The position numbers were made by a program, and so were the translations under genes. A stretch of 64,000 nucleotides of DNA from Escherichia phage ESCO13: the sequence record NC_047770.1, one strand, 5' to 3'. Shown here one piece after another: positions 2,804 through 53,880 of the stretch (its first letter is position 1; every line of letters begins with the position of its first letter). The notes beneath the pieces were generated by a model, which worked only from the letters and a program-made list of their open reading frames with translations, had not been told where the DNA came from and ran no database searches.

Positions 2804-5800
2804 ATGGCAACATTCCCAACATATCCAGCAACGTCTCTCGAACAGGGCGTAGACCTGGTTATTTTCTCATCTAACCAACTCCATGATGTTATTAATGGAA
2901 GTGCTACAGAGAGTATTGAAACAGAATCAGGGTTGATACCAACCCTGAGAAAAGCCCTTGTTGACAACTTTTTCTTTAAAAGCCCATTGGATTGGGCGCA
3001 AGGCACAAACGAAACAGTTTTTAACCAACTACGTTATTTTCAGAATGGGGTATTGAGCGGTTATTATTATGCTCCTAATGCTACACTGGTAAACCCAATT
3101 CCTATGCAAGGGACTCCAGTAGGAGATAACAACTGGGTATTGTGGGGACTGAAGACAGAACAACTAGCAACAGAAGTCACCCCGTGGGTATACTCTGGTG
3201 CAACGGGTTATGAAACAGTAATTAGTCCTCCTTACATCTTTGATAGTGCTATTGTTACGATCAATGGTGTTATTCAGGTTCTGGGGGAAGCTTTCCGTAT
3301 AGAAGATAGTAAGATCATCTTATCTGAACCTTTGGGACACGATCCTGCAACAGGACTACCAAACAAGCTTTTTGCTTATATTGGTAAAATCGTAGCTTCA
3401 GCAGATACAGATCCTAATCTAGAGAACCGTCTTGTTAGTTTAGAAACAAAAACGGAAGAACTAACAGAAAGCATGGATAAAGTCCCTCTGCAAACTATTG
3501 CTCGTAAATATGGTTTGTTAGATGACGAGGTGGCTTACGCAACAGCAGGTCAATCGTTAACAGGGATTAAAGCTCTGTATGATCCAGTAGCACAGTCTTC
3601 CTACACATTACCTCCTAACATCACAGGAACTTTAACATCCTTGTCTGTTTCTGGAGTAATGACTTATTCTGGGGGGTCTGTAGATCTTTCTGCACTAGCT
3701 GTTGAACGTGGACAGTTTGTTCATTTGCCTACAAGCTTTGGTAATAACGTAACTCTGACAGCTAAAAATCAGACGATTGGACGTGGTGCTGGTCGTTATC
3801 GTTGGGCTGGAAGTTTACCAAAAAGTATTTTGGCCTCCGATACATTGGAGACAAGCGGTGGATTAGGTCCAAATGCATGGGTTCTGACCAATACAGAAGG
3901 ACTGTTAACCCCTCGTGGTGGAACATACAACGATTTATTCGATGTTGTCTACTTGTCAGAATTTGCTAACAACACAACAACATATACCACACCAGAAGCA
4001 GCTTTCCAAGCGGCACTGTTAGCAGCAAAAGCTTCGAAAAGCAAGATTCTCGATGCTTACGGTTGCGATATGACTTTCACGACAAGCTCTTTTGATATTC
4101 AAGGTATCACTTTGCGTGGGGGTGTGTTCCGTGGTCAACGCGACTATCGTGTGCAAAATGCTACAGTAGAAGGCACAACTTTCCGTAACTCTCGTGTTAT
4201 GTATTGGGGTGGTGCTGTGCGCATGTTCGATTGTTTGTGGGACGGTGCTCCTCGCGCAGGTCAAGTTGGTAGCTTGGTATTCCAAGGCAACCCAATATCA
4301 GGTACTTTTGAAATTGATAACTGTACTTTTAAAAACGGGTTGTATGGCATCCTTCAACAAGGAACAGGGGAACCAGTAACACATGGTGTCTTCCGTAACC
4401 TTACCTTCATGGACATGCAAGGTGATGCAATAGAACTGAACGTCATCAATAAACATTATGACGATGGTTGTGTGATTGAGAATATTTACCTGTCTAATAT
4501 CGATGGGACTAACGCTCCTATTCCTCTGTCCAACTGGGGTATCGGTATCGGTGTAGCTGGTAAAGGACCATATGGTTACGGAATACCTGATGATCAATAT
4601 TGCAAGAATATTACAATTCGTAACGTTTTTGCAAAACGTTGTCGTCAGATTGTCCACGTAGAAGTTGGTCGTAATATCTCTATCGAAAACATTCATGGCG
4701 ATCCAGACCAAACTGTATCTGTTGGGACAGGTTTGGCAACTGGCGCAGTTGTAATGTATGGAAGTAAAGACTTTACGATTGATGGTGTTTATGGAGAGCC
4801 TAAAACAGACGGTAGCACACTTGCAAGTAATATCCGTATGATTTATTTGGAGTGGGGAACTAACGCAGTTCTGGACGAAGAGGGTAATCCGGTAGTTCCG
4901 GCACAGGGTAGACCTTCAAATCCATGCTTTAACTATTCTGTTCGTAACATTCACACCAAAACTGGGCGTGTTTTTGCGGGAGTTTCCGCTGGGCCAGGTT
5001 ATGAAAACAGAGTTAGCTTTGAAAATATTCGTTGCGCCGCATTGCAGTTGTTCGGTATAGCTTCTTGGCTTTCAATGTCTAACATCACCTGTAATATCTT
5101 CGATTGTGTTGGTCAACCTGAATCTGGTCCAGGGACATTTTATGATGGATTCTTCCGTAGAGAAAAATCTGTTCTTGAAATGGTTAACGTAAACTGTTAC
5201 CCAGATGGCAAGACGATGGTTACTGGTCGTCCACAGTGGAGCCGTTGCCGTTACTCGGATATTCATCGTGTCAACTGTAATGTTGAAGCTAATATGTATA
5301 CCAATATCGCAGGTGGTATTGGAGCTATTGTAGGGACAACGGGCAAAGTTTATTACTTAGAGCCTAATCCTAGTCGAAACATTGATGGAATGCATTTCCC
5401 AACGGGGAAAGAGTTTGACAAAGGGGATATGATAGTCAAGGCGGATAATACGTTCTTCCTTGTAACAACAAGTGGGGCATATATTCCAGATATCCCAGCT
5501 TTCGGTATTCGAGCTACACAGGCAGGAGATACCTTCCTGACACAGAACTTGACTCCTAACGGGACAGCAACAAATGCTTCTTGGTTGTATCATTACCCTC
5601 TGTCAGCAGGGACACGTATCCGTATTCCTGGTGCTGGTGTAGGTGGAGCAGATTTGGACACAGTTATTACTCGTGCACCTTATCAAGATAATGATACGTG
5701 GACTAACCCAGTTAAAATAGACATTGCAGATCCAATTGTAACGCCTACAAGTGCTGGAGTTAGAATTAAAACCATACCTAATGATTCCAGTAATGTTTCT

Positions 5801-5857
5801 GTAGGTAATACTGCGGTTATTCGCCCAACGCCAGTAGTAGATGTGCCAACAACCTAA
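2804..5857 (+). CDS. large tail fibre / tailspike protein
   Basis: 1017 aa, Gly/Thr/Asn-rich beta-type composition, inside the fibre gene block. Confidence 0.65.
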   Translation: MATFPTYPATSLEQGVDLVIFSSNQLHDVINGSATESIETESGLIPTLRKALVDNFFFKSPLDWAQGTNETVFNQLRYFQNGVLSGYYYAPNATLVNPIPMQGTPVGDNNWVLWGLKTEQLATEVTPWVYSGATGYETVISPPYIFDSAIVTINGVIQVLGEAFRIEDSKIILSEPLGHDPATGLPNKLFAYIGKIVASADTDPNLENRLVSLETKTEELTESMDKVPLQTIARKYGLLDDEVAYATAGQSLTGIKALYDPVAQSSYTLPPNITGTLTSLSVSGVMTYSGGSVDLSALAVERGQFVHLPTSFGNNVTLTAKNQTIGRGAGRYRWAGSLPKSILASDTLETSGGLGPNAWVLTNTEGLLTPRGGTYNDLFDVVYLSEFANNTTTYTTPEAAFQAALLAAKASKSKILDAYGCDMTFTTSSFDIQGITLRGGVFRGQRDYRVQNATVEGTTFRNSRVMYWGGAVRMFDCLWDGAPRAGQVGSLVFQGNPISGTFEIDNCTFKNGLYGILQQGTGEPVTHGVFRNLTFMDMQGDAIELNVINKHYDDGCVIENIYLSNIDGTNAPIPLSNWGIGIGVAGKGPYGYGIPDDQYCKNITIRNVFAKRCRQIVHVEVGRNISIENIHGDPDQTVSVGTGLATGAVVMYGSKDFTIDGVYGEPKTDGSTLASNIRMIYLEWGTNAVLDEEGNPVVPAQGRPSNPCFNYSVRNIHTKTGRVFAGVSAGPGYENRVSFENIRCAALQLFGIASWLSMSNITCNIFDCVGQPESGPGTFYDGFFRREKSVLEMVNVNCYPDGKTMVTGRPQWSRCRYSDIHRVNCNVEANMYTNIAGGIGAIVGTTGKVYYLEPNPSRNIDGMHFPTGKEFDKGDMIVKADNTFFLVTTSGAYIPDIPAFGIRATQAGDTFLTQNLTPNGTATNASWLYHYPLSAGTRIRIPGAGVGGADLDTVITRAPYQDNDTWTNPVKIDIADPIVTPTSAGVRIKTIPNDSSNVSVGNTAVIRPTPVVDVPTT

Positions 5858-5863
5858 TGGAAT

Positions 5864-5885
5864 AGAGGGGGGGATTCCCCCTCTT
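5864..5885 (+). other. G-rich hairpin AGAGGGGGGGATTCCCCCTCT between fibre genes
   Basis: 9-bp inverted repeat immediately after the stop at 5855-5857; no clear U-tract. Confidence 0.35.
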
Positions 5886-5920
5886 CTTCCAATAGAATGG
5901 TCTAATGATAGGAGAGATAA

Positions 5921-7945
5921 ATGAATTTAACAAGACCTAATAGTGCGATAGCCGATCTGGTAGAAGCTACTTATCGAAAACGTCGCAGCTTTGAGGCAGG
6001 TTTTACATTACGTAATTCCCGTGAAGTTTTGCTGTTAGCAGCAGAAGGGAATTATTACCAATGGAAAGGAACTTTTCCTAAAGTAGTTCCAGCAAACTCT
6101 ACGCCAGCCACCACAGGTGGTATTTCTTCCCTTGCATGGCAAAATGTTGGGACCGCTGATGATATAGCAATTATCAATGCCAAGTTTACGGCAGTGCAAC
6201 AACAGATTAATGATTTGTCAGAAGCAATACCTGAAGCTGGTAAATCGGCTTATCAGATCGCACTTGATAATGGTTTTGTTGGAACAGAAGCCCAGTGGCT
6301 TGCTTCTTTGAAAGGAGATACTGGTGCTCAACTTAATATTAAGGGATCATTAGCAAGCACTAGTGAACTACCATCTACAGGTAACATCGCAGGAGATGGT
6401 TATATCGTAGGTGATGTGATTTACGCTTGGGATGGTTCTGTTTGGAAACTTATTTCTTCTCTTGGACCAGAAGGGAAATCAGCTTATGAGGTATGGTTGG
6501 CAGATGGTAATACAGGATCTGTTTATGACTTTCTTACCTCTATAAAAGGTGATAAAGGTGATGTTGGTCCTACAGGGCCACAGGGAGCACCTGGTGTTAA
6601 CGCCAACGGTTTTGATTATCGTGGGGATTTACCTTCTACAAGTAACTTACCACAACCTAACTCTGAAAACGTAAGCCAAGCTTATTCTATCAATGGTAAT
6701 CTTTATGTCTCTAATGGGACAGCTTGGGTCAACATGGGTAATATTGTTGGTCCTCAAGGTCCACAAGGTGAGGCAGGTAAAGACGGTCTTGATGGAACAG
6801 ATGGAGATGAAGGGAAATCTGCATATCAAAGTTGGCTGGATGCTGGTAATGAAGGGACAGAAGTAGATTTTATTGCCTCACTTAAAGGTCCAAAAGGAGA
6901 CAAGGGTGATCAAGGAGAGCGAGGTCCACAAGGTGAACTAGGTCCACAAGGACCAGTGGGTGCAACAGGATCAGGCTTAGAGATTATCGGGGTTCTGAAC
7001 AGTGAAGCTGAACTTCCTCCTACTGGAGAAGTAGGTGACGCATATAAAATTAATAATGATTTATATGTTTGGGTCCAAGATGCTACGGAATGGATGAATG
7101 TTGGCAGTCTTGGAGGAACATCAATTACAGCTAAAGGTCATGTTCCGAACAGTGAAGCTCTCCCTGTTTACAATAACTATGGTGATGCTTACTTAACTGA
7201 AGACACTAGTAATCTTTACATCTATACCTACGATCAAGACACCAATTCCGCATCTTTTGTTGACATGGGAAGTATTAAAGGCGACAAAGGTGAAAAAGGG
7301 GATAAAGGAGATAAGGGTGATCCTGGAACAAACGGAACCAACGGTACTGATGGGACCAACGGTAAGGATGGCGCACAGTGGTTTGTAGCAACAACTAATC
7401 CAGTCACAGGAGACGGTGTTATCAATGATTACGCCTTCAATACTACCACTGGAGCAGTGTTTAAGAAAACAGATTCTTCTACGTGGACGCTTATAGGCAC
7501 TCTTCCTAGTATACCAGAAGCCCCTCAAGACGGCTTGACGTATGGTCGGTCTGATGGAAACTGGATCGAAATATCAGGATCAGATCCTACGGAAGCTATA
7601 ACACCAACTAGAGTTACAGCAGGTTTCATGGAACTTGAAACAACTACTGCCAACTCTGGAGCATCTTGGACTCCTTCTGGAACTTCCAATATGTATGTTG
7701 TTACAGTAACTGATGCTCTGACAGTTGGAGCATGGCCTGGTGTCACTGGCTCTACAAAACCTAAAGCATTTTCAGCAATGATTTATTTGATTCAAGATAC
7801 AACGGGACACACGGTTACACTAGATGCGTCTTATGGAGCACTAAATGATACAGAAATAGCAACTACTGCTAACGCAGTAACAATTTTGCAATTAACGTAT
7901 CCTGGTGTGGGTGATATCGTGGACATGGTTGTTGTAACACGATAA
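5921..7945 (+). CDS. tail fibre protein with collagen-like Gly-X-Y repeats
   Basis: 674 aa; four Gly-X-Y runs, e.g. GDKGDVGPTGPQGAPG, GPKGDKGDQGERGPQGELGPQGPVGATG, GDKGEKGDKGDKGDPGTNGTNGTDGTNGKDG. Confidence 0.7.
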   Translation: MNLTRPNSAIADLVEATYRKRRSFEAGFTLRNSREVLLLAAEGNYYQWKGTFPKVVPANSTPATTGGISSLAWQNVGTADDIAIINAKFTAVQQQINDLSEAIPEAGKSAYQIALDNGFVGTEAQWLASLKGDTGAQLNIKGSLASTSELPSTGNIAGDGYIVGDVIYAWDGSVWKLISSLGPEGKSAYEVWLADGNTGSVYDFLTSIKGDKGDVGPTGPQGAPGVNANGFDYRGDLPSTSNLPQPNSENVSQAYSINGNLYVSNGTAWVNMGNIVGPQGPQGEAGKDGLDGTDGDEGKSAYQSWLDAGNEGTEVDFIASLKGPKGDKGDQGERGPQGELGPQGPVGATGSGLEIIGVLNSEAELPPTGEVGDAYKINNDLYVWVQDATEWMNVGSLGGTSITAKGHVPNSEALPVYNNYGDAYLTEDTSNLYIYTYDQDTNSASFVDMGSIKGDKGEKGDKGDKGDPGTNGTNGTDGTNGKDGAQWFVATTNPVTGDGVINDYAFNTTTGAVFKKTDSSTWTLIGTLPSIPEAPQDGLTYGRSDGNWIEISGSDPTEAITPTRVTAGFMELETTTANSGASWTPSGTSNMYVVTVTDALTVGAWPGVTGSTKPKAFSAMIYLIQDTTGHTVTLDASYGALNDTEIATTANAVTILQLTYPGVGDIVDMVVVTR

Positions 7946-7949
7946 CAGA

Positions 7950-7976
7950 AGCCCCGAAAGGGGCTTTCTTTTTATG
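7950..7976 (+). terminator. rho-independent terminator
   Basis: AGCCCC-GAAA-GGGGCT stem-loop followed by TTTCTTTTTAT. Confidence 0.6.
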
Positions 7977-7986
7977 GAGGGTTTAA

Positions 7987-10662
7987 ATGTTTCCAATTCC
8001 AATATTTACTATTATGACCAGCACTGGTGTCGTTCCTCTGCCAGCAGGTATTGTTAAAAAAGTAATCACTTTAGATTACCCAGATAACGCTGGTAATTCT
8101 AACAGCAGTTTAGCAATTTTGCTTAATGATGGTAGATTGTTTACTCAAGGCGCAAACCTCTTTGGTGAGATTGCAGATGGAACTCGTAGTGCACGATTCA
8201 ATAATTTCCACTTAGCTTCTACTGTAGTAGCGGATGTGTTTACCGCAGATCGTTGTTTTGTTATTAAAACTAACAGTGGGGGATGGCAATATTCAGGATT
8301 GACAGCAGGGTTGGTAGGATCTATAGCAGCAGGTGGTACGGATGCATGTGTAACTACCTGGACCAGCTTTCCATCTGTAATAACAGGGACTATTTCTTTA
8401 GCCAATCTTAAAGAGGTTAAAGGAGGGTATAACAATACTCTCTGGTTAATGAATAGTGGTGTTCTTTATGGATCGGGTCAAAACACAGTAGGTAGTTTAG
8501 GTGCAAGCACTACTAACGAAGTTTCTACTCCTCGTCAGATAACAAGCGCAGCAGTTGCTTTTGATGCAGGTTACAACCAATGCTCTTATGTCAACAATGT
8601 GGGAACCTTGCGTGTTTGTGGAGCTAGTAAAGGTTTAGCAGGTAATAATAACACAACAACAGCTTTTGTCAATGCCACAATATCCACTACTGAAACAGTG
8701 TATGTCAAAGATTACATCAATACAGTTTCCCAGACAATAGTTGTAGGAGATACCTCCGGTGGCACGGGTACAGTAAACTACTTATATGTTAGATCTAATA
8801 CAGAAACAACCTACACTAAACTGGATACCTTTGCAGCAGGTTTCTCAACATGGAAGTTTCCACCAAGCCGCCACTCTTTTTTCGTTGGGATCAATAATTC
8901 CTTGTGGGCTATTGGTAAGAACTACACTGCAAACTTAGGTTTGGGGTATGATTCTGCGAGCGGAGATCCACTCCAAGTGGGAAAACCAGTTAAACCTGAA
9001 GGAGTGGGTTCTTGGGATATAAACAAGCTCACAAGCGTTCATACGCTGAATATGGATGTTACTAACCAATTAGGTTATCAAGGAACCTTTTTCGTTTATA
9101 ATGGAGATATGTATTATTCCGGTATTTGGAAAGATGGGAAAGCCTCGTATCTGTTCAATAGTGGTCTAAACTATAATAAATTCACACCAATAGCAAGCTC
9201 CGTGATTACGGGCGATATTCTGGCAACAGGCTTAACTACAGATTCTTTAGGAATTTGTATTGTAGGTGGAACTAAACAGTTGACACATTCTGTTAGCCCA
9301 GAAGGAGGCAAACTTTTCAATATTAAATACACTTCTTCTGCCCCTGCAAACATGACAATATCATCTACTGGTTTAATGACTTTCCATGCAGAAGGTGGTT
9401 TTGATGCAGGTATGACAGCCTTAAACGCTGAAGGAACAACTTTATCAGATACCTCTGGAGGATATGCTTCAACATTGAGTGTTTACACCCCTAGCTTATC
9501 TGCGATGGATGTAGGAACAACACAAACAATGGTAGCAGAAATAACGCCAACAGGAGCAGCAAGCTTACCTGGTATGGTTGTTGAGTATTTCTCTAATGAC
9601 CCTACGGTAGCAACAGTTGACCCCGTTACAGGCGTTATTACAGCGGTTGCTGATGGAGGTTGTCGTATCGGTTGTAGAGCAACTTATCAAGGTGTGGTAA
9701 CTGCCGAAGATAGTTCTTATCTCACAGTGAATGCTGTGGTGATTGTGATGGATTATGATTTGACGCAAGAAACTATTCCGGCGGATGTAAAGGTCAACAG
9801 GAGTAACCGTTATGCCAGGGCTTCTGGAGATATCCTTGTACCTACAGAGAGTTCTGCTCCCGTAGCACCTTTAGAATATGTTGGTACAACTCCACAAGGT
9901 AGACGTGTTGTAGCAGCCAACCGTACACATATCTTTATCAACAATAACTTGACAACAGCTTCCCCGTGGTTGAAGACGAACTTGACAGTCACGGCATCAA
10001 CAATCAACTCTCCGGTTGGAACTACAGCTAACACTTACAAGTTAACACCTTCTACAACTTCAGGACAACATATTTTATCAGCAGTGAATACAGCTTCTGA
10101 TATTACAGCAGGTAAGCACTGGGCGGCATCCGTATTCTTGAAGCCAGACGGGATCACTAAAGTGAAACTCAAATTGACTTCAGGAGATGAGATTAACGAA
10201 GGGACTTATGATCTTGTAGCTGGAACATTTACAGGTGCAGATGCAAACATAATCGATATGGGGAATGGTTGGTATCGTGTAATTCTACACAAAGTGACAG
10301 TTGCCAAACAAGCATCTATAACCTATGAGATTATAGCTTTGAATGCAAGTGGATCAGACACTTTCGCAGGAGATGGTACGGCAGGTCTTATTGCTTGGGT
10401 TCCACAGCTTGAGATGGGTGATATGACAAATCCAGTTTGGGCTGGGACACCATTTGTTTGTTCTTATGCACGAGACACTACCAGTGCTGTTACCTTCACT
10501 ATTCCTAAGAATGGACATACTGGCGTGGACATTTACCACACTGATGGTACTGTGCAACGAGAGGTCTTCACTGGTACAGCTACAACTTGGATGTTGACGT
10601 TCACCGCCGCAAGTGCGGATTGGGGATCGAAGTTCATTACAGGTTTGAAATATTACGACTAA
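7987..10662 (+). CDS. tail fibre protein with Ig-like (Big_2-type) domain
   Basis: 891 aa; Ig-like segment VGTTQTMVAEITPTGAASLPGMVVEYFSNDPTVATVDPVTGVITAVADGG; last gene of the plus-strand late block. Confidence 0.65.
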   Translation: MFPIPIFTIMTSTGVVPLPAGIVKKVITLDYPDNAGNSNSSLAILLNDGRLFTQGANLFGEIADGTRSARFNNFHLASTVVADVFTADRCFVIKTNSGGWQYSGLTAGLVGSIAAGGTDACVTTWTSFPSVITGTISLANLKEVKGGYNNTLWLMNSGVLYGSGQNTVGSLGASTTNEVSTPRQITSAAVAFDAGYNQCSYVNNVGTLRVCGASKGLAGNNNTTTAFVNATISTTETVYVKDYINTVSQTIVVGDTSGGTGTVNYLYVRSNTETTYTKLDTFAAGFSTWKFPPSRHSFFVGINNSLWAIGKNYTANLGLGYDSASGDPLQVGKPVKPEGVGSWDINKLTSVHTLNMDVTNQLGYQGTFFVYNGDMYYSGIWKDGKASYLFNSGLNYNKFTPIASSVITGDILATGLTTDSLGICIVGGTKQLTHSVSPEGGKLFNIKYTSSAPANMTISSTGLMTFHAEGGFDAGMTALNAEGTTLSDTSGGYASTLSVYTPSLSAMDVGTTQTMVAEITPTGAASLPGMVVEYFSNDPTVATVDPVTGVITAVADGGCRIGCRATYQGVVTAEDSSYLTVNAVVIVMDYDLTQETIPADVKVNRSNRYARASGDILVPTESSAPVAPLEYVGTTPQGRRVVAANRTHIFINNNLTTASPWLKTNLTVTASTINSPVGTTANTYKLTPSTTSGQHILSAVNTASDITAGKHWAASVFLKPDGITKVKLKLTSGDEINEGTYDLVAGTFTGADANIIDMGNGWYRVILHKVTVAKQASITYEIIALNASGSDTFAGDGTAGLIAWVPQLEMGDMTNPVWAGTPFVCSYARDTTSAVTFTIPKNGHTGVDIYHTDGTVQREVFTGTATTWMLTFTAASADWGSKFITGLKYYD

Positions 10663-11629: not shown

Positions 11630-12022
11630 TTACATTAATTTTGCACAGAAAGAGCGGAGTCTTTCCATATCATCTTGCTCTAACAGGTATTTACCTTTAC
11701 CTATTCCAACTCCAATTTCACCATTAGGAAAATGAACTATTTGCACTGGGAAACCTCCGAGTTTAATTGTGGCAGCTTTGCCTTCTTCGTCTATAACGTT
11801 TCGGATTGTATCTTGCAGTGAAATGAATTCTTTGTTTGTAACAGTGGTTTCAATTATTTCAGATGTTTCGACACGAGCAGTTAGCTTCTTGTTTCCACCT
11901 TGAATAACCAAAATTTGAAAATAAAAAGAGTTGTCAAGACCTACAACATTTTTCTCAACTAGTGTCAAACTGGTGTAGTTTCCATAAACAGTTTCAACAG
12001 CTATCTTAGAACGTTCAGTCAT
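11630..12022 (-). CDS. hypothetical protein
   Basis: 130-aa ORF in the packed early operon. Confidence 0.5.
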   Translation of the reverse strand: MTERSKIAVETVYGNYTSLTLVEKNVVGLDNSFYFQILVIQGGNKKLTARVETSEIIETTVTNKEFISLQDTIRNVIDEEGKAATIKLGGFPVQIVHFPNGEIGVGIGKGKYLLEQDDMERLRSFCAKLM

Positions 12023-49505: not shown

Positions 49506-50966
49506 GTGCCAAAAATAGTCACTTGGGAACAATATAAAACAGATATAAAACAAGCTTATCAAGGTAAGTCTTGGATTGTTGTAGATTATATTGAGCCGTG
49601 GAACGGCAATAAAACTAAACTTAGATGCATCTGTGCTCTGCATGGAGAATGGAAAACAACAAGCATAAATACCGCTAAACTAGGGAGGGGTTGTCCAGAA
49701 TGCGGTAGGGAGATTATAAGTAAAGCAGTATCTATAAACAAATCAAAAACCTGGGAGCAATATAAAGAAGAAGTGCAAACCACTTACAATCAGGCAGGTA
49801 AGTTTTGGACTGTTACAGGATGGCACGGAGAATGGAAAGGATGGAATACTAAACTGGTTTGTTGTTGTGCTTTACATGGGGAGTGGAGGTCTACTTCTAT
49901 ATCTTCTGCGAAAAACGGGAGTGGATGCAGGAAGTGTATGGGAGAAGCAAACAGAGAAAGAACATCGATTGCATGGGAGAAACATAAAGAAGAAGTAGAA
50001 GAAGCTTATAAAGAAAAACCCTGGATTGTTAGAGGCTATGTGGAACCGTGGAACGGTTCCCGCACTAAGTTGATTTGTGAGTGTAAGGTTCATGGTCAAT
50101 GGTGCACTACCACTGTAAACAGTGCTAAACAAGGGACTGGATGCTACAGTTGTCAAAGAGAAATGACGAAACAAAGGAATACAATGGAGGATAAACAACA
50201 TGTTGAAGATTTTATAAAAGCTTGTCCTGATAATGTAGAGCGTAAATATTATCGTAGCGATAGAGTAGATAGATTAGGTCGTCAGGTTTACTGGATTGTA
50301 GAATGTCCTATATGTGCAGAGGATGATTATTGTAAAGAAGGCTTATGCGATAATAAATTTGAGATGAAGATGAGTCATTTGAAAAGGGGTGGCCTTCCTT
50401 GCCGTTGTTCTAAATATTATCATTACACTCCTGAACAATGGGCCTACCGTATGACCAAAGCTTGCCAGGAACGAGGGGATCAATTTATAGGATTCATTGA
50501 TAAGGTAAGCAATAACAGCAAGTTTAAATATCTATGTAGGGAGCATGGAGAGCAAACGATCACACCTACCGATTATCTCAATGGGAAAGGTTGTCCAGGC
50601 TGTAAGAACAGAAATATGCAAGAATTTTACATCAATATTATTCTTGATGAGTACGGAGAAGACACGGGAGCTTACAAGTTGGGGATTGCAAAGGACAGTG
50701 ATATCAGGATCAAAGGGCAGAATGCAAACAACAATTACTCTATGCGCCGTATAGCATTGTTCGATCTGCCGTCCTACCAAGCTTGCAGGGCGTTAGAGAG
50801 TAAGCTAAAGTCTAAGACTGATCAGATTCTACCGTCTATTGGCTGTGTAGAACGCTTGCACATGAAAGATGGTCATAGTGAAACCTTCCTGCGCGAGGAT
50901 TTGGCTATCGTCTTAAGTGCTATCAACCAAGCAGGTGGAATAATGAGAGAGGAGGAAACATGTTAG
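49506..50966 (+). CDS. protein with tandem zinc-ribbon repeats and a C-terminal GIY-YIG/T5orf172-like domain
   Basis: 486 aa; GTG start after RBS GGGGGAGG; at least three ~48-aa repeats of the pattern W(T/I)V.G(Y/W).EPWNG..TKL.C.C..HGEW..T(S/T)(I/V)..AK.G.GC..C; C-terminal YKLGIAKDSDIRIKGQ resembles the T5orf172/GIY-YIG core. Confidence 0.6.
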   Translation: MPKIVTWEQYKTDIKQAYQGKSWIVVDYIEPWNGNKTKLRCICALHGEWKTTSINTAKLGRGCPECGREIISKAVSINKSKTWEQYKEEVQTTYNQAGKFWTVTGWHGEWKGWNTKLVCCCALHGEWRSTSISSAKNGSGCRKCMGEANRERTSIAWEKHKEEVEEAYKEKPWIVRGYVEPWNGSRTKLICECKVHGQWCTTTVNSAKQGTGCYSCQREMTKQRNTMEDKQHVEDFIKACPDNVERKYYRSDRVDRLGRQVYWIVECPICAEDDYCKEGLCDNKFEMKMSHLKRGGLPCRCSKYYHYTPEQWAYRMTKACQERGDQFIGFIDKVSNNSKFKYLCREHGEQTITPTDYLNGKGCPGCKNRNMQEFYINIILDEYGEDTGAYKLGIAKDSDIRIKGQNANNNYSMRRIALFDLPSYQACRALESKLKSKTDQILPSIGCVERLHMKDGHSETFLREDLAIVLSAINQAGGIMREEETC

Positions 50967-51338: not shown

Positions 51339-51518
51339 ATGGCACGTTTAGCAGATCATGAAATCTTTAAACCTATTCTGAACCACTATGATGAACTTAA
51401 AGCAGTGTTGGATTGTTATAGAGAGGATGAAGAACGTTTGGAAGTCAATCTTAAGATAGTTCTGATGAAAGCTTTTCAAGACGGGCAAGCTAAAGTTTTA
51501 GAAGGCATGAAAAAATGA
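51339..51518 (+). CDS. hypothetical protein
   Basis: Start at MARLADHE after RBS AAAGGAG. Confidence 0.45.
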   Translation: MARLADHEIFKPILNHYDELKAVLDCYREDEERLEVNLKIVLMKAFQDGQAKVLEGMKK

Positions 51519-52057
51519 GAATAACTGATGAATATGTATTCTTCTTTTCACATAAAGATGTGTTTAGTAATTGGTATATTGCACCCTTTACAGAAACTGA
51601 ACCAGGTTACAATGAGACTTTCTGTTGTGTTGAGCAATATATGATGTGGCGTAAGGCTTTGCTGTTCAAGGATCATGCGATTGCAGCAGCTATCCTTGAT
51701 CACTCAACTATACGTGACAACGAGAGGAAACAAGCATACTACAAACGTATGGGTCGAGCGGTATCTGGTTTTAATAATGATATGTGGGAAGAGAACCGTG
51801 AGCGTATTGTTATGCGAGGCTTATGCTTGAAATATGTACAGAATCCAGATTTGTATGCAGACTTACACCTTTACCAATACAAAACGTTTGTTGAAGCAAG
51901 TCCTTACGATAAGGTTTACGGTATTGGAATGGGAATGTATGAACCAGGGGTGCTAAACCCTGCTACCTGGAAAGGGCAGAATCTTTTAGGAAAATATCAT
52001 AATAAACTGATCGAAATACTTTTCCCAGACAAAATACCGCAAAGACGATATTTGTGA
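51515..52057 (+). CDS. NADAR/YbiA-like (DUF1768) domain protein
   Basis: 180 aa; FFFSHKDVFSNWY ... CVEQYMMWRKALLF ... YGIGMG pattern characteristic of the NADAR family. Confidence 0.65.
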   Translation: MRITDEYVFFFSHKDVFSNWYIAPFTETEPGYNETFCCVEQYMMWRKALLFKDHAIAAAILDHSTIRDNERKQAYYKRMGRAVSGFNNDMWEENRERIVMRGLCLKYVQNPDLYADLHLYQYKTFVEASPYDKVYGIGMGMYEPGVLNPATWKGQNLLGKYHNKLIEILFPDKIPQRRYL

Positions 52058-52113
52058 TATTTTAACTTTTTTCATTTTTAGAACAAAGGTGTCACTTTGT
52101 AGCACAGAAATAA

Positions 52114-52148
52114 GGCTCCTACAGCACCGTAGAGAGCCTGTTATTTTG
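52114..52148 (+). terminator. rho-independent terminator ending the plus-strand block
   Basis: GGCTCCTAC-AGCACC-GTAGAGAGCC followed by TGTTATTTTGT. Confidence 0.5.
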
Positions 52149-52296
52149 TCCTATACAAACCCTTGTCTTTTTCAGTTTGCATCACTAGGATTCGATCTGA
52201 GTGGGTTCCTGAAGGTTTACCAATAAGATTAAAGGTTATATCAAATTCCCACTACCTATTATCTCAAAAATCCCTCAAATTATTTAAACTTTTTAA

Positions 52297-52480
52297 GAAT
52301 TTACAAAAGTGAAAGTTGAAAACCAAAATTTAAAGTTTAGGAAAATTATCTTAAAATGTCAGATACAAAACAAAACTCAAAAGTCAAGGAAAATTTTAAA
52401 AATTTTGCGCGCCCACAGTATTTAAAGTTTTTTTGCTTTTACAAAAATGAAAGTACAAAAGCAAAATTTAAAGTTTACAA
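52297..52480. repeat. AT-rich iteron-like repeat zone
   Basis: About seven copies of (G/T)AAAGT(T/C/A) with A-tracts; two ~40-bp imperfect direct repeats (TACAAAAGTGAAAGTTGAAAACCAAAATTTAAAGTTTAG and TACAAAAATGAAAGTACAAAAGCAAAATTTAAAGTTTAC). Confidence 0.45.
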
Positions 52481-52497
52481 AAATTTTTATGCAGGTG

Positions 52498-52606
52498 AGA
52501 ATGAGAAGAGTTCTCATATGGAAATGCAAATGATAATGATTCGCATTTAAGTTTATAAATGAGATTGATTCTTATTTAATAAGGTAAATGATAATCATTC
52601 TCATTT
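52498..52606. promoter_or_regulatory. array of four phased 21-bp Fur-box-like palindromes
   Basis: Boxes start at 52498, 52528, 52557, 52586 (29-30 bp period): gAATGAgAagagTTCTCATat, AAATGATAATGATTCGCATTT, AAATGAGATTGATTCTTATTT, AAATGATAATCATTCTCATTT; the last contains AATGATAATCATT, the core of the Fur consensus GATAATGATAATCATTATC. Confidence 0.45.
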
Positions 52607-52865
52607 AGAGAATGACGCGCAGGGGCGGTGTTTGTCTCGCGCTCCCGTGTCCCCTCGCCATGTAATAAGAATAACAGATCCAGCCAGGAAAGCAAGCGAT
52701 TATTTTATCTTTACATTTCTTTACAAATATAGAGCGCCCAGCCTACCGGCGATCAACCTTCCAACCAGTGCCCCCTGGTATGTTAGCCCCGCCTTTACGC
52801 CGTGGGGTGGCGCTTCCTCTTCTGTATGTAAAACAGTATAAGCCCGATCCCTGGGCTTGTCAAGA

Positions 52866-53132
52866 TTATTTTTTGTTTTCTTGCCAGGATAGGACACCTA
52901 ACCAAAAATACATATCGCCCCGCGCCCCTGGTGGTATCTTGCTTTCCCCGCCGCCACTGCAAGCCCATAGATAACCATTTGCGAACGTATCAAAATGATC
53001 TATCTCTTCCACCTTATGATCGCCCAGGTTGAGAACGGTTTCAACCTTTAAGCCCGTTGCGCTTGCTACCTGGTGCACCGTGCCGCCTTGCCAGCCCAAT
53101 GAGTGCATAAGGTGTAATGTAGTATTTGTCAT
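52866..53132 (-). CDS. hypothetical protein in the GC-richer island
   Basis: 88 aa; preceded on the minus strand by its own promoter, 5-prime hairpin and RBS. Confidence 0.5.
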   Translation of the reverse strand: MTNTTLHLMHSLGWQGGTVHQVASATGLKVETVLNLGDHKVEEIDHFDTFANGYLWACSGGGESKIPPGARGDMYFWLGVLSWQENKK

Positions 53133-53154
53133 GGTATCGCCCTTTCTTTGATGT

Positions 53155-53207
53155 GCGCCCTGGTTGGCGCGGTAGAAAGATGATAGCCCTTTCTTTTATA
53201 TATAGCA
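53155..53207 (-). promoter_or_regulatory. minus-strand promoter TTGCTA-N17-TATCAT plus 5-prime hairpin
   Basis: -35 at 53207-53202, -10 at 53184-53179, hairpin GCGCC-AACCAG-GGCGC (53170-53155), then RBS AAAGGG and ATG at 53132; divergent from the first plus-strand cassette. Confidence 0.45.
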
Positions 53208-53241
53208 AGCAAAAAGAAAATAAAAAAGATTGAAAAAGTGA

Positions 53242-53299
53242 TTGACGTTCGCCAGGTGGCGGCATAATATTTACCACGTAGGGCGGCAATGGTGCCGCT
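53242..53299 (+). promoter_or_regulatory. promoter-hairpin cassette 1
   Basis: TTGACG-N17-TAATAT-TTACCACG-TAGGGCGGCAATGGTGCCGCT. Confidence 0.6.
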
Positions 53300-53319
53300 C
53301 ATTATTTGGAGTTAAAATC

Positions 53320-53517
53320 ATGGCAACATTGCACATTGTGGCGAAAGCTGGACAAATAAACGTGGTAGTAAACGGTTTTACTGAGTTCAGTCATCCCCAG
53401 GATGATCATGAAACGGTTTTATCTTTCATTGATTCACTGTTAGAAATGGGAGTAATTACAGAAGACCAGCACGGTACAAAATGCAAGCGCGTTAATCAAA
53501 TTGCAGGAATAGAATAA
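53320..53517 (+). CDS. small hypothetical protein
   Basis: 65 aa MATLHIVAKAGQ...; ATG after RBS GGAG, not the upstream TTG of the track ORF. Confidence 0.55.
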   Translation: MATLHIVAKAGQINVVVNGFTEFSHPQDDHETVLSFIDSLLEMGVITEDQHGTKCKRVNQIAGIE

Positions 53518-53523
53518 AAACTA

Positions 53524-53582
53524 TTGACAACAAACAACAACCTGATAAGATGTATCACATAGGGCGGGAAGTGGTTTCCCGC
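53524..53582 (+). promoter_or_regulatory. promoter-hairpin cassette 2
   Basis: TTGACA-N16-TAAGAT-GTATCACA-TAGGGCGGGAAGTGGTTTCCCGC. Confidence 0.6.
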
Positions 53583-53607
53583 TCGTAACAGAAGAGAGAT
53601 TATCATC

Positions 53608-53880
53608 ATGGCATCATATAGCGCAACAATGATCGTAGCTGGCACAACTGGTAAACCTATGAGCGGTGGCGGATCTTTCGCTAATATCAATATTGACGGG
53701 CGTTTATCCCTGGACGCAGCGATCGCTATTGCACGGGAAACATTTAAGAAAGAATGTAATTTCAACAAGCAAGATTATCTCGGTTTCGCTATTGAAAAAA
53801 CCGCGCGCTTTGTTGATTATAAAAGCCCGAAAATGGTTGATACTACACTAAAAGCGCAAGATGTAGCGTTTTTGCTTTAA
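53608..53880 (+). CDS. small hypothetical protein
   Basis: 90 aa; RBS AGAAGAGAG. Confidence 0.55.
   Translation: MASYSATMIVAGTTGKPMSGGGSFANINIDGRLSLDAAIAIARETFKKECNFNKQDYLGFAIEKTARFVDYKSPKMVDTTLKAQDVAFLL

Follow-up and report, generated by a model that had tools for sequence, protein, structure and literature searches.

Known and Probable Fur Sites in Bacterial Hosts and on Phage Genomes

Clusters of Fur sites, together with polymerisation of the protein over them, have been described in bacteria (PMC2189734). The present text concerns a related arrangement on a phage genome, an array of four Fur-like boxes at positions 52499–52606 of a 64,000-nucleotide stretch of Escherichia phage ESCO13 (record NC_047770.1; the whole stretch is hereafter called the window). 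Compared to the multi-site Fur operators of fepA-fes, fepB-entC and the aerobactin gene iucA, the array has the same 7-1-7 repeats, the same overlap of sites at a 6-bp offset (in its second box), the clustering and matrix scores within the genuine range. Besides these similarities there are differences, as the host clusters are contiguous or overlapping, with 3- or 6-bp offsets, and lie on the promoters of iron genes, whereas the phage array is made of discrete 21-bp boxes at a 29-bp pitch, is nearer to a perfect palindrome and is found in a virulent phage, with no gene to regulate.

Host-factor sites also occur in the packaging regions of phages, as in the case of IHF in lambda cosB. By analogy with that system, and with the DnaA boxes of the T5 injection stop signal, the array may be a non-coding region that recruits an abundant host DNA-binding protein near the termini; to our knowledge, Fur has not been described in a packaging- or origin-region role. 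Regarding Fur boxes on phages, one is known on stx1, a cargo gene of temperate phages. Lambdoid phages carrying sitABCD offer a further case, where the phage-borne Fur box joins the host Fur regulon (PMC6969025). The boxes of sitABCD and stx1 are single operators on promoters of protein-coding cargo in prophages, unlike the array, which lies in a gene-free hub of virulent phages. Such arrays in gene-free hubs of virulent phages were not found described in the literature searched, which covers subscription papers incompletely. Fur operators and Fur boxes on prophage cargo are already known; near-perfect arrays in gene-free hubs of virulent phages appear to be new.

The Box Array and Its Fur-Like Specificity

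The four boxes are probably Fur-binding sites, as predicted from their sequence, and host Fur is the likely binder. The boxes and the half-site that follows them are given below, with scores from two position weight matrices, one built from E. coli Fur sites and the other from phage boxes.

52499–52519 (core 52502–52516): Fur-like box 1, GAATGAGAAGAGTTCTCATAT, the most degenerate; E. coli matrix 13.7 (19-bp frame from 52497), phage matrix 20.3
52528–52548 (core 52531–52545; extended palindrome 52522–52548): Fur-like box 2, AAATGATAATGATTCGCATTT; E. coli matrix 16.1 (frame from 52526) and 12.8 (frame from 52532)
52557–52577 (core 52560–52574): Fur-like box 3, AAATGAGATTGATTCTTATTT, the weakest by the E. 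coli matrix; phage matrix 26.1
52586–52606 (core 52589–52603): Fur-like box 4, AAATGATAATCATTCTCATTT, the best box; E. coli matrix 18.8, top match in the window
52608–52615: conserved half-site GAGAATGA, 24 bp past the start of the box 4 core

The 15-bp cores TGAnAATnATTnTCA start at 52502, 52531, 52560 and 52589, giving a pitch of exactly 29 bp with 8-bp linkers between the 21-bp boxes, and between 10 and 13 of the 14 positions of the 7-1-7 repeat TGATAATnATTATCA are matched (13, 12, 10 and 10 over the four cores). An earlier note on this DNA had listed four boxes in a non-coding zone with a period of 29–30 bp; all four are present, with box 1 in register at 52499 instead of 52498 and the period being 29 bp throughout. 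The degenerate 21-mer by which they were described has matches with 0–2 mismatches only in the array, within the whole 64-kb window, and if the 11 matches of the core pattern were scattered at random, about 7e-6 clusters of at least four within 90 bp would be expected. The zone is indeed non-coding, a gap of about 800 bp (52058–52865) without a conserved open reading frame. The same note had recognised the 13-bp centre of the Fur consensus in box 4, and rightly so, since this box contains AATGATAATCATT and equals the consensus GATAATGATAATCATTATC in 16 of 19 positions; it is the sole site with at most 3 mismatches to GATAATGATAATCATTATC in the 64 kb scanned (0.05 expected).

Box 2 extends to a 27-bp palindrome, AAATGCAAAT-N7-ATTCGCATTT, in which two 7-1-7 sites overlap at an offset of 6 bp, as in the classical 19-bp Fur box, and this extended palindrome is also present in T5-like phages. 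Box 3 is outside the 15 best window matches of the E. coli matrix, the lowest of which scores 10.8, and has a near-identical counterpart, TGAGATTGATTCTCA, at position 9693 of T5. The half-site GAGAATGA pairs with the right arm of box 4 as an inverted repeat and is, at the same time, the minus-strand 3' arm of the outer stem of the adjacent hairpin (module B, described below). In the form GAAT(G/A)(A/G)C it is kept in the 17 aligned lineages that have module B beside the last box, and two Avunavirus-type sequences have an insertion there.

The specificity was assessed in both directions. The host matrix was derived from the best match to the literature consensus in each of 13 Fur-regulated intergenic regions of E. 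coli K-12 (fepA-fes, fepD-entS, fepB-entC, fhuA, feoA, ryhB, fecI, fecA, cirA, fiu, fhuF, tonB and exbB). Its five best matches among 63,982 window positions are all within 52497–52608, with scores of 18.8, 16.1, 13.7, 13.1 and 12.8, compared to 11.5–20.1 for the training sites. The phage matrix, derived from 25 boxes of seven phages (consensus AAATGAGAATcATTCTCATTT), was in turn scanned over 119 kb of E. coli K-12 DNA from four loci, where it ranked fecI first (23.8), followed by ryhB (22.2), fhuA (17.7), fepA-fes (14.8), fecA (14.5), fepB-entC (14.1) and fepD-entS (13.5), all unrelated sites scoring about 10 or less. All seven matches of at least 13 are in known Fur-regulated promoter regions, as is the best match of each of the four loci. 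The Fur-box-like identity proposed earlier is therefore supported by the scan of the region with a Fur matrix, the top window matches being in the array, as well as by the reverse test.

None of the 13 host sites examined comes as near to a perfect palindrome as the phage boxes do. The consensus of the phage boxes is TGAGAAT-N-ATTCTCA, with G/C in place of the textbook T/A at core position 4; the same G/C is seen in 7 of the 13 genuine E. coli sites (ryhB, fhuA, fecI, fecA, feoA, entC and exbB). When E. coli Fur was compared by tblastn with 50,697 phage records, no homologue was found in Phapecocta-, Justusliebig-, Vequinta- or T5-like phages, and host Fur is therefore the simplest binder. The alternative suggested in the earlier note, a phage repressor with Fur-like specificity, finds no support in this search.

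Conservation of the Array in Related Phages

A megablast of 52000–53200 matched 145 phage records, 66 of which cover at least 80% of the query in one place, mostly with 90–99% identity. These 66 records are Escherichia phages of the genus Phapecoctavirus (phAPEC8-like myoviruses of about 150 kb, Stephanstirmvirinae), identifying the window as part of a phAPEC8-like myovirus. The recurrence of the array in close relatives, raised in the earlier note, is thus confirmed by these records, and the array is found in distant relatives too. Further relatives, collected by sensitive BLAST and by two pattern scans of IMG/VR, have in common a non-coding region around the boxes, hereafter the hub. It is shared within Stephanstirmvirinae by Phapecoctavirus, phiWec181, phi92/alia and Citrobacter phage Tr1, and within Vequintavirinae by rV5/Murica, CR3, POP15, PVP-SE1, KPP-1 and Avunavirus 24-2-1.

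The boxes themselves are kept in Phapecoctavirus, Justusliebigvirus, Citrobacter phage Tr1, Certrevirus, Seunavirus, Mydovirus, Avunavirus and Vequintavirus, in 1–5 copies. The last one, the counterpart of box 4, is always 38 bp ahead of the GGTGWTTGTCTC motif, in the window as in the relatives, and PVP-SE1 and Avunavirus 24-2-1 have a single box at this same fixed position. As judged from these comparisons, the array is the copy-number-variable part of an old, conserved non-coding hub of about 0.8 kb. When the array was compared by BLAST with 5,426 E. coli genomes, nothing reached E <= 0.01, a query of this length being too short for that database. Records labelled as Campylobacter, Acinetobacter and Pseudomonas phages match the region at up to 98% identity; these labels are probably due to mislabelled hosts or contaminants in public records.

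Spacing of the Boxes

Over all loci, 21 of 47 semi-independent pairs of adjacent boxes are 28–29 bp apart with unrelated linkers, T5-like phages and other contigs being included in this count, and the 29-bp pitch recurs in 21 of 43 clusters. The earlier note had taken this period as close to three turns of the helix, with all sites on the same side of the DNA. This reading is not sustained, as 29 bp corresponds to 2.76 turns at 10.5 bp per turn, or about 86 degrees of rotation per step, and the spacings of 43 semi-independent box pairs have a strong 29-bp mode alone, without 10.5-bp periodicity. Same-face phasing was rejected accordingly, with R at 10.5 bp being 0.47 overall and 0.07 after removal of the 29-bp class. 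A spacing quantum of about 5.85 bp, that is, a hexamer register, was also rejected; it reached R = 0.69 but was carried by the 29-bp mode, and when that class is left out it gives p = 0.92 in a period scan and p = 0.02 at the fixed period, being kept as a hint. The footprint of a single Fur box is about 30 bp, and the 29-bp pitch may reflect the close packing of adjacent Fur units.

Anatomy of the Non-Coding Hub

An alignment of 19 non-redundant lineages (MAFFT), read in the orientation of the window, gives the order of the hub as direct repeats, Fur boxes, GAATGA half-site, module B, promoter P_L2, the tandem TCTTTACA-N3-TCTTTACAAA, module D and promoter P_L1. Their positions in the window, apart from those of the boxes, and the neighbouring genes are as follows.

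52276–52485, plus strand: AT-rich direct repeats, two 72-nt copies (52276–52347 and 52414–52485, 138 bp apart) and a partial third
52611–52662, minus strand: module B, a GC-rich hairpin beginning at the predicted P_L2 start site; its loop (TGWTTGTCT on the plus strand) is conserved and its stems covary
52668–52695, minus strand: P_L2, sigma-70 promoter-like, TTGCTT-16-TATTCT
52708–52727, minus strand (GTAAA-N5-GTAAA): tandem TCTTTACA-N3-TCTTTACAAA, directly ahead of the P_L2 -35 hexamer; conservation in the hub is highest here
52743–52812, strand ambiguous: module D, a structured element of two helices with compensatory changes
52835–52863, minus strand: P_L1, a strong sigma-70 promoter, TTGACA-17-TATACT (11/12 match), facing the array
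49506–50966: gene just upstream of the hub for a 486-aa protein with five CapR-homology repeats and a PHROG match to HNH endonuclease
51515–52057, plus strand: NADAR-domain gene, left border of the gap, annotated as 'GTP cyclohydrolase II' in some records
52866–53132, minus strand: 88-aa gene without assigned function, right border of the gap

Both promoters point into the array from about 230 nt (P_L1) and 55 nt (P_L2) upstream, with no gene downstream. P_L1 is conserved in 19 of 19 lineages, scoring 9–12 of 12 with a spacing of 17–18 bp and GC-rich, divergent spacers. Most of the 19 lineages have the P_L2 hexamers in the aligned place (16–18 bp spacing), these being weakest in two Avunavirus-type sequences and stronger than in the window in other relatives, such as TTGCAA-17-TATATT and TTGATC-16-TATTAT. 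As the hexamers of both promoters are kept while the spacers diverge, selection on promoter function is indicated, and the locus is a candidate for a non-coding RNA or for a transcription-activated element. A Fur-repressed plus-strand promoter over box 4 (TTGAAT-18-cAGAAT) was also considered but given less weight, since several lineages have T or G in place of the essential -11A; a Fur half-site combined with an arm of an RNA stem accounts better for the conserved GAATGA.

The second copy of the tandem and its flank, TCTTTACAAA, are invariant in 19 of 19 lineages, and an indel of exactly 10 bp separates the GTAAA tandem from the P_L2 -35 hexamer in some of them. The GTAAA-N5-GTAAA arrangement resembles the CpxR box; if it were a true one, a second host regulator would be wired into the hub.

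Regarding the structured modules, the inner stem of module B is GCG/CGC in the window, CCCGG/CCGGG in CR3 and CCGG/CCGG in KPP-1. Its strand is not uniformly indicated, as G-U wobbles in the outer stem favour minus and some of those in the inner stem favour plus. The rV5-like phage Murica has two module B copies (L004 2515–2760), with Fur boxes ahead of each. In the two-helix structure proposed for module D, 88.9% of the cells are paired, compared to 35–44% in slid controls, four pairs have compensatory changes and the covariation score is above all 500 shuffles. It matches no Rfam family, and its indels are not multiples of 3, which is against coding. RNAalifold on the raw MAFFT alignment gives weak consensus energies of -9 to -11 kcal/mol, from which the strand is not assignable.

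The direct repeats ahead of the boxes carry several TTTACAAA motifs, and relatives have other, lineage-specific repeats at the same position, of about 40–70 bp in about three copies, some with GATC (phi92, CR3, PVP-SE1 and Murica). The coding potential of the GC-rich segment 52610–52860 was ruled out by indels that are not multiples of 3 and by the absence of a conserved open reading frame. Searches of the hub neighbours with Pfam and PHROGs returned NADAR, the CapR/HNH endonuclease and proteins of no assigned function, with no DNA-binding candidate, and Rfam at a permissive E-value over 51500–53700 gave only noise, with no tRNA or tmRNA.

Genome Ends, T5 and Other Viral Contigs

The position of the hub in the genome was obtained from ESCO37, of the same genus and 98% identical in the overlap, by which the window stops about 1.1 kb short of the record end and the array would therefore be about 12–13 kb (about 8%, by homology to the phage BME3) from a genome end. 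Two more Fur-like boxes, at 148,250 and 149,018, are in the gene-free terminal 1.2 kb of ESCO37 (about 0.2 and 1.0 kb beyond the window), so that the hub array is not the sole cluster of Fur sites in this genome type. The hub borders the inner side of a terminal block of small early-type genes, all facing the terminus and each with its own annotated promoter and terminator. P_L1 and P_L2 have the opposite direction to these genes, away from the terminus and into the remaining genome.

PhageTerm analysis has defined a terminal repeat of 342 bp in the phi92-like phage BME3 (PMC12210895). This repeat (PP239276 146957–147298, also 1–342) carries two Fur-like boxes, of which one lies right at its boundary. 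The hub array of BME3 occupies 11,879–11,992, at a distance from the terminus of about 8% of the genome. A stretch of 788 bp from the start of the BME3 record recurs at its end, probably as an artefact of assembly.

The similarity to T5-like phages is detectable by BLAST, with the box variants AAATGCRAAT...ATTCGCATTT and TGAGATTGATTCT being shared. In T5 itself (AY692264) the boxes are at 9554–9713, inside the annotated 'injection stop signal' (9140–10144), where they follow four DnaA boxes; 35 bp separate the last one from the major nick at 9748–9749, where the left terminal repeat ends. The T5 palindromes (AY692264 9437–9749) score up to 20.1 with the E. coli Fur matrix. The T5 injection stop signal and the hub are alike in having homologous boxes and other repeats within a large stretch of non-coding DNA, and going by BME3 the hub would share with T5 a distance of about 8% to a genome end. 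Meanwhile, the T5 region has DnaA boxes, nine DRD repeats (10.1101/866236) and a plus-strand terminator, and it is situated where a 10-kb terminal repeat ends; all of these are absent from the window, which instead has modules B–D and two promoters. Searched with at most 1 mismatch, the DnaA box TTATCCACA is absent from 52040–52880, and four are found in each of T5 and the T5-like phage VEc33.

The T5 region was analysed by Davison in terms of palindromes and direct repeats, with a DnaA-based model in which Fur is unmentioned (10.1101/866236), and two papers from 2023 and 2026 describe it merely as rich in repeats and palindromes. Judging from their order, the T5 boxes presumably correspond to palE–palJ and the DRC elements. 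No description of these palindromes as Fur-like boxes, nor any link of Fur to T5 or to the phages studied here, was found in the literature searched, with its incomplete coverage of subscription papers. A second palindrome type, TTAGCnnGCTAA, is seen near Fur boxes in VEc33 (L003 2070–2140) and in the rV5-like Murica (L004 2490–2510).

Beyond these groups, 13 of 117 further loci with perfect palindromes in IMG/VR have at least 3 boxes within 300 bp. Five unrelated IMG/VR contigs that were examined have non-coding boxes or arrays, often 29 bp apart, at 0.4–2.1 kb from terminase genes, with the following positions.

L195 6500–6680, the same array being at L213 5110–5300: two boxes 29 bp apart with flanking perfect DnaA boxes, between terminase and primase-helicase genes
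L232 6850–6960: boxes of an unrelated contig
L223 2090–2200: boxes of an unrelated contig
L155 80–210: boxes of an unrelated contig
L186 1400–1450: boxes in GC-rich DNA, suggesting a non-enteric host

A further contig of 43.7 kb has Fur-like boxes at both ends (L191 140–230 and L192 4660–4700), beside long (TA)n and (TAA)n tracts; terminal repeats, or an assembly that broke off at the array, may be the cause.

Possible Roles of the Array

The explanation favoured here, although tentatively, is that Fur-Fe2+ serves as an iron-dependent operator or roadblock for transcription at the hub. The boxes would be high-affinity sites, at a fixed 29-bp pitch, for the Fe2+-loaded dimer of host Fur. Transcription from P_L1 and P_L2 would proceed from the terminus side through modules D and B, both short and structured at the RNA level, into the array. 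With sufficient iron, Fur-Fe2+ would occupy the boxes and polymerise over them, blocking this transcription, and with Fur empty the RNA polymerase would continue into the AT-rich repeats. The output of the hub would then follow host iron, be it through the length of the non-coding RNA or through whatever couples to transcription there. Fur binding, the block of RNA polymerase and the downstream consequence are each steps that we infer from sequence comparison. An operator-like role is favoured over that of a pure decoy because the position of the last box is fixed and some relatives have only one box, and the roadblock or operator reading is favoured because the only robustly conserved promoters fire into the array.

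Several observations weigh against it. Fur sites usually overlap a promoter, and the sole overlapping candidate here (the TTGAAT-18-cAGAAT sequence mentioned above) lacks a conserved -11A in several lineages, which makes classical repression doubtful. No protein-coding gene is placed for regulation by the array, we know of no Fur mode that consists of a roadblock about 55 nt downstream of a start site, and the folding strand of modules B and D is ambiguous. In addition, T5-like phages and several metagenomic contigs have arrays without the P_L1/P_L2 context, beside DnaA boxes, terminal-repeat ends and terminase genes, which argues for a role at the DNA level tied to termini, DNA entry or replication and not for one in transcription; readings of this kind stay strong competitors.

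Such a role has been considered in the form of a terminus or DNA-entry element, in which the array would mark the boundary of the first-entering segment and act on the DNA itself, in the manner of the T5 injection stop signal or as a part of one; bound host Fur could pause or organise internalisation or end processing, possibly braking an entry driven by P_L1 and P_L2. Although less likely than the operator reading, it is consistent with the BLAST similarity to the T5-like arrays, including the T5 stretch annotated 'injection stop signal' with its last box 35 bp from the nick, with the two boxes in the BME3 terminal repeat and a hub array at about 8% of that genome from the terminus, with the terminal boxes of ESCO37, with boxes near terminase genes in five unrelated viral contigs and at contig ends in others, and with the inward direction of P_L1 and P_L2, away from the terminus. 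However, the hub is 12 kb from the end and not at it, the DnaA boxes of T5 are missing from the hub, the end of the BME3 record contains assembly duplications, the agreement at about 8% may be coincidence, and there is no clear way for a cytoplasmic protein to stop DNA entry. A broader form, more speculative and of low probability, takes the Fur-box arrays as a shared first-entry boundary module of virulent enterobacterial phages, with Fur as an iron-dependent brake on internalisation or on the passage from the earliest gene block to the remaining genome; the T5 palindromes would then be Fur sites, rV5- and phAPEC8-like myoviruses would have the module at about 8% from the genome end, and Fur would, for example, block RNA polymerase heading from P_L1 and P_L2 toward DNA still outside the cell. 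It appears rather improbable that the array is a decoy, by which hundreds of replicated phage genomes would titrate Fur and derepress host iron uptake and the iron-starvation response. A cell has about 5,000–10,000 Fur monomers, and 4 boxes with 2 dimers each in a few hundred genomes amount to the same order; moreover, the boxes are top-quality sites without a regulated gene, nearer to a perfect palindrome than the 13 host sites, and there are several per genome, four in the hub and extra ones near the terminus. Nevertheless, titration is unlikely to be the conserved function, as relatives (PVP-SE1 and the Avunavirus one) have a single box at the same fixed position, a sponge would need neither the strict position relative to module B nor the 29-bp pitch, and T5 degrades host DNA early (10.64898/2026.04.02.716235), making host derepression pointless there.

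A slimmer chance is given to an accessory role at a transcription-activated replication origin, with Fur as an architectural or licensing factor coupling initiation to iron and hence to dNTP supply. The layout of tandem promoters, followed by a G-rich structured transcript and then by AT-rich palindromes and direct repeats, resembles the primary origins of T7 and T4 and the priming of ColE1. The boxes of L195/L213, 29 bp apart amid perfect DnaA boxes, and the T5-like arrays beside DnaA boxes point in the same direction, but the hub in the window has no DnaA boxes and no adjacent initiator gene (its neighbours being NADAR, the CapR/HNH endonuclease and genes of no assigned function), and the T5 origins were mapped near mid-genome (10.1101/866236); the GC skew follows gene orientation only and is uninformative. 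Very improbable, and ranked last, is that the binder is a phage-encoded protein of Fur-like specificity, or that the boxes are mere DNA or RNA hairpins (terminators, cruciforms) with an incidental likeness to Fur sites. The palindromes can fold, a terminator-like minus-strand hairpin is called at 52616–52594, and the G/C at position 4 departs from the textbook T/A. That departure is nonetheless shared by 7 of 13 genuine E. coli sites, the phage matrix selects true Fur promoters with no false top matches, and AT-only hairpins without a U-tract are poor terminators. As for a phage binder, no Fur-family gene was found in the phage groups searched, and for a motif common to phages with unrelated terminases and lifestyles a shared host factor is simpler.

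Significance for Phage Biology

The arrays are conserved across two myovirus subfamilies and are also found in T5-like siphoviruses and, in unrelated contigs, near genome ends. An early infection step may thus be gated by the iron status of the host. If Fur binds the boxes, virulent phages would read this iron state directly. Iron also controls receptors (FhuA and TonB-dependent transporters) and the iron-dependent nucleotide supply used by these phages. The finding bears on a question of more than 50 years, the composition of the T5 injection stop signal, and the first-entry reading would make this signal testable in a fur mutant. In addition, rV5, phAPEC8, phi92 and PVP-SE1 are among the broad-host-range therapy candidates used in iron-poor host environments.

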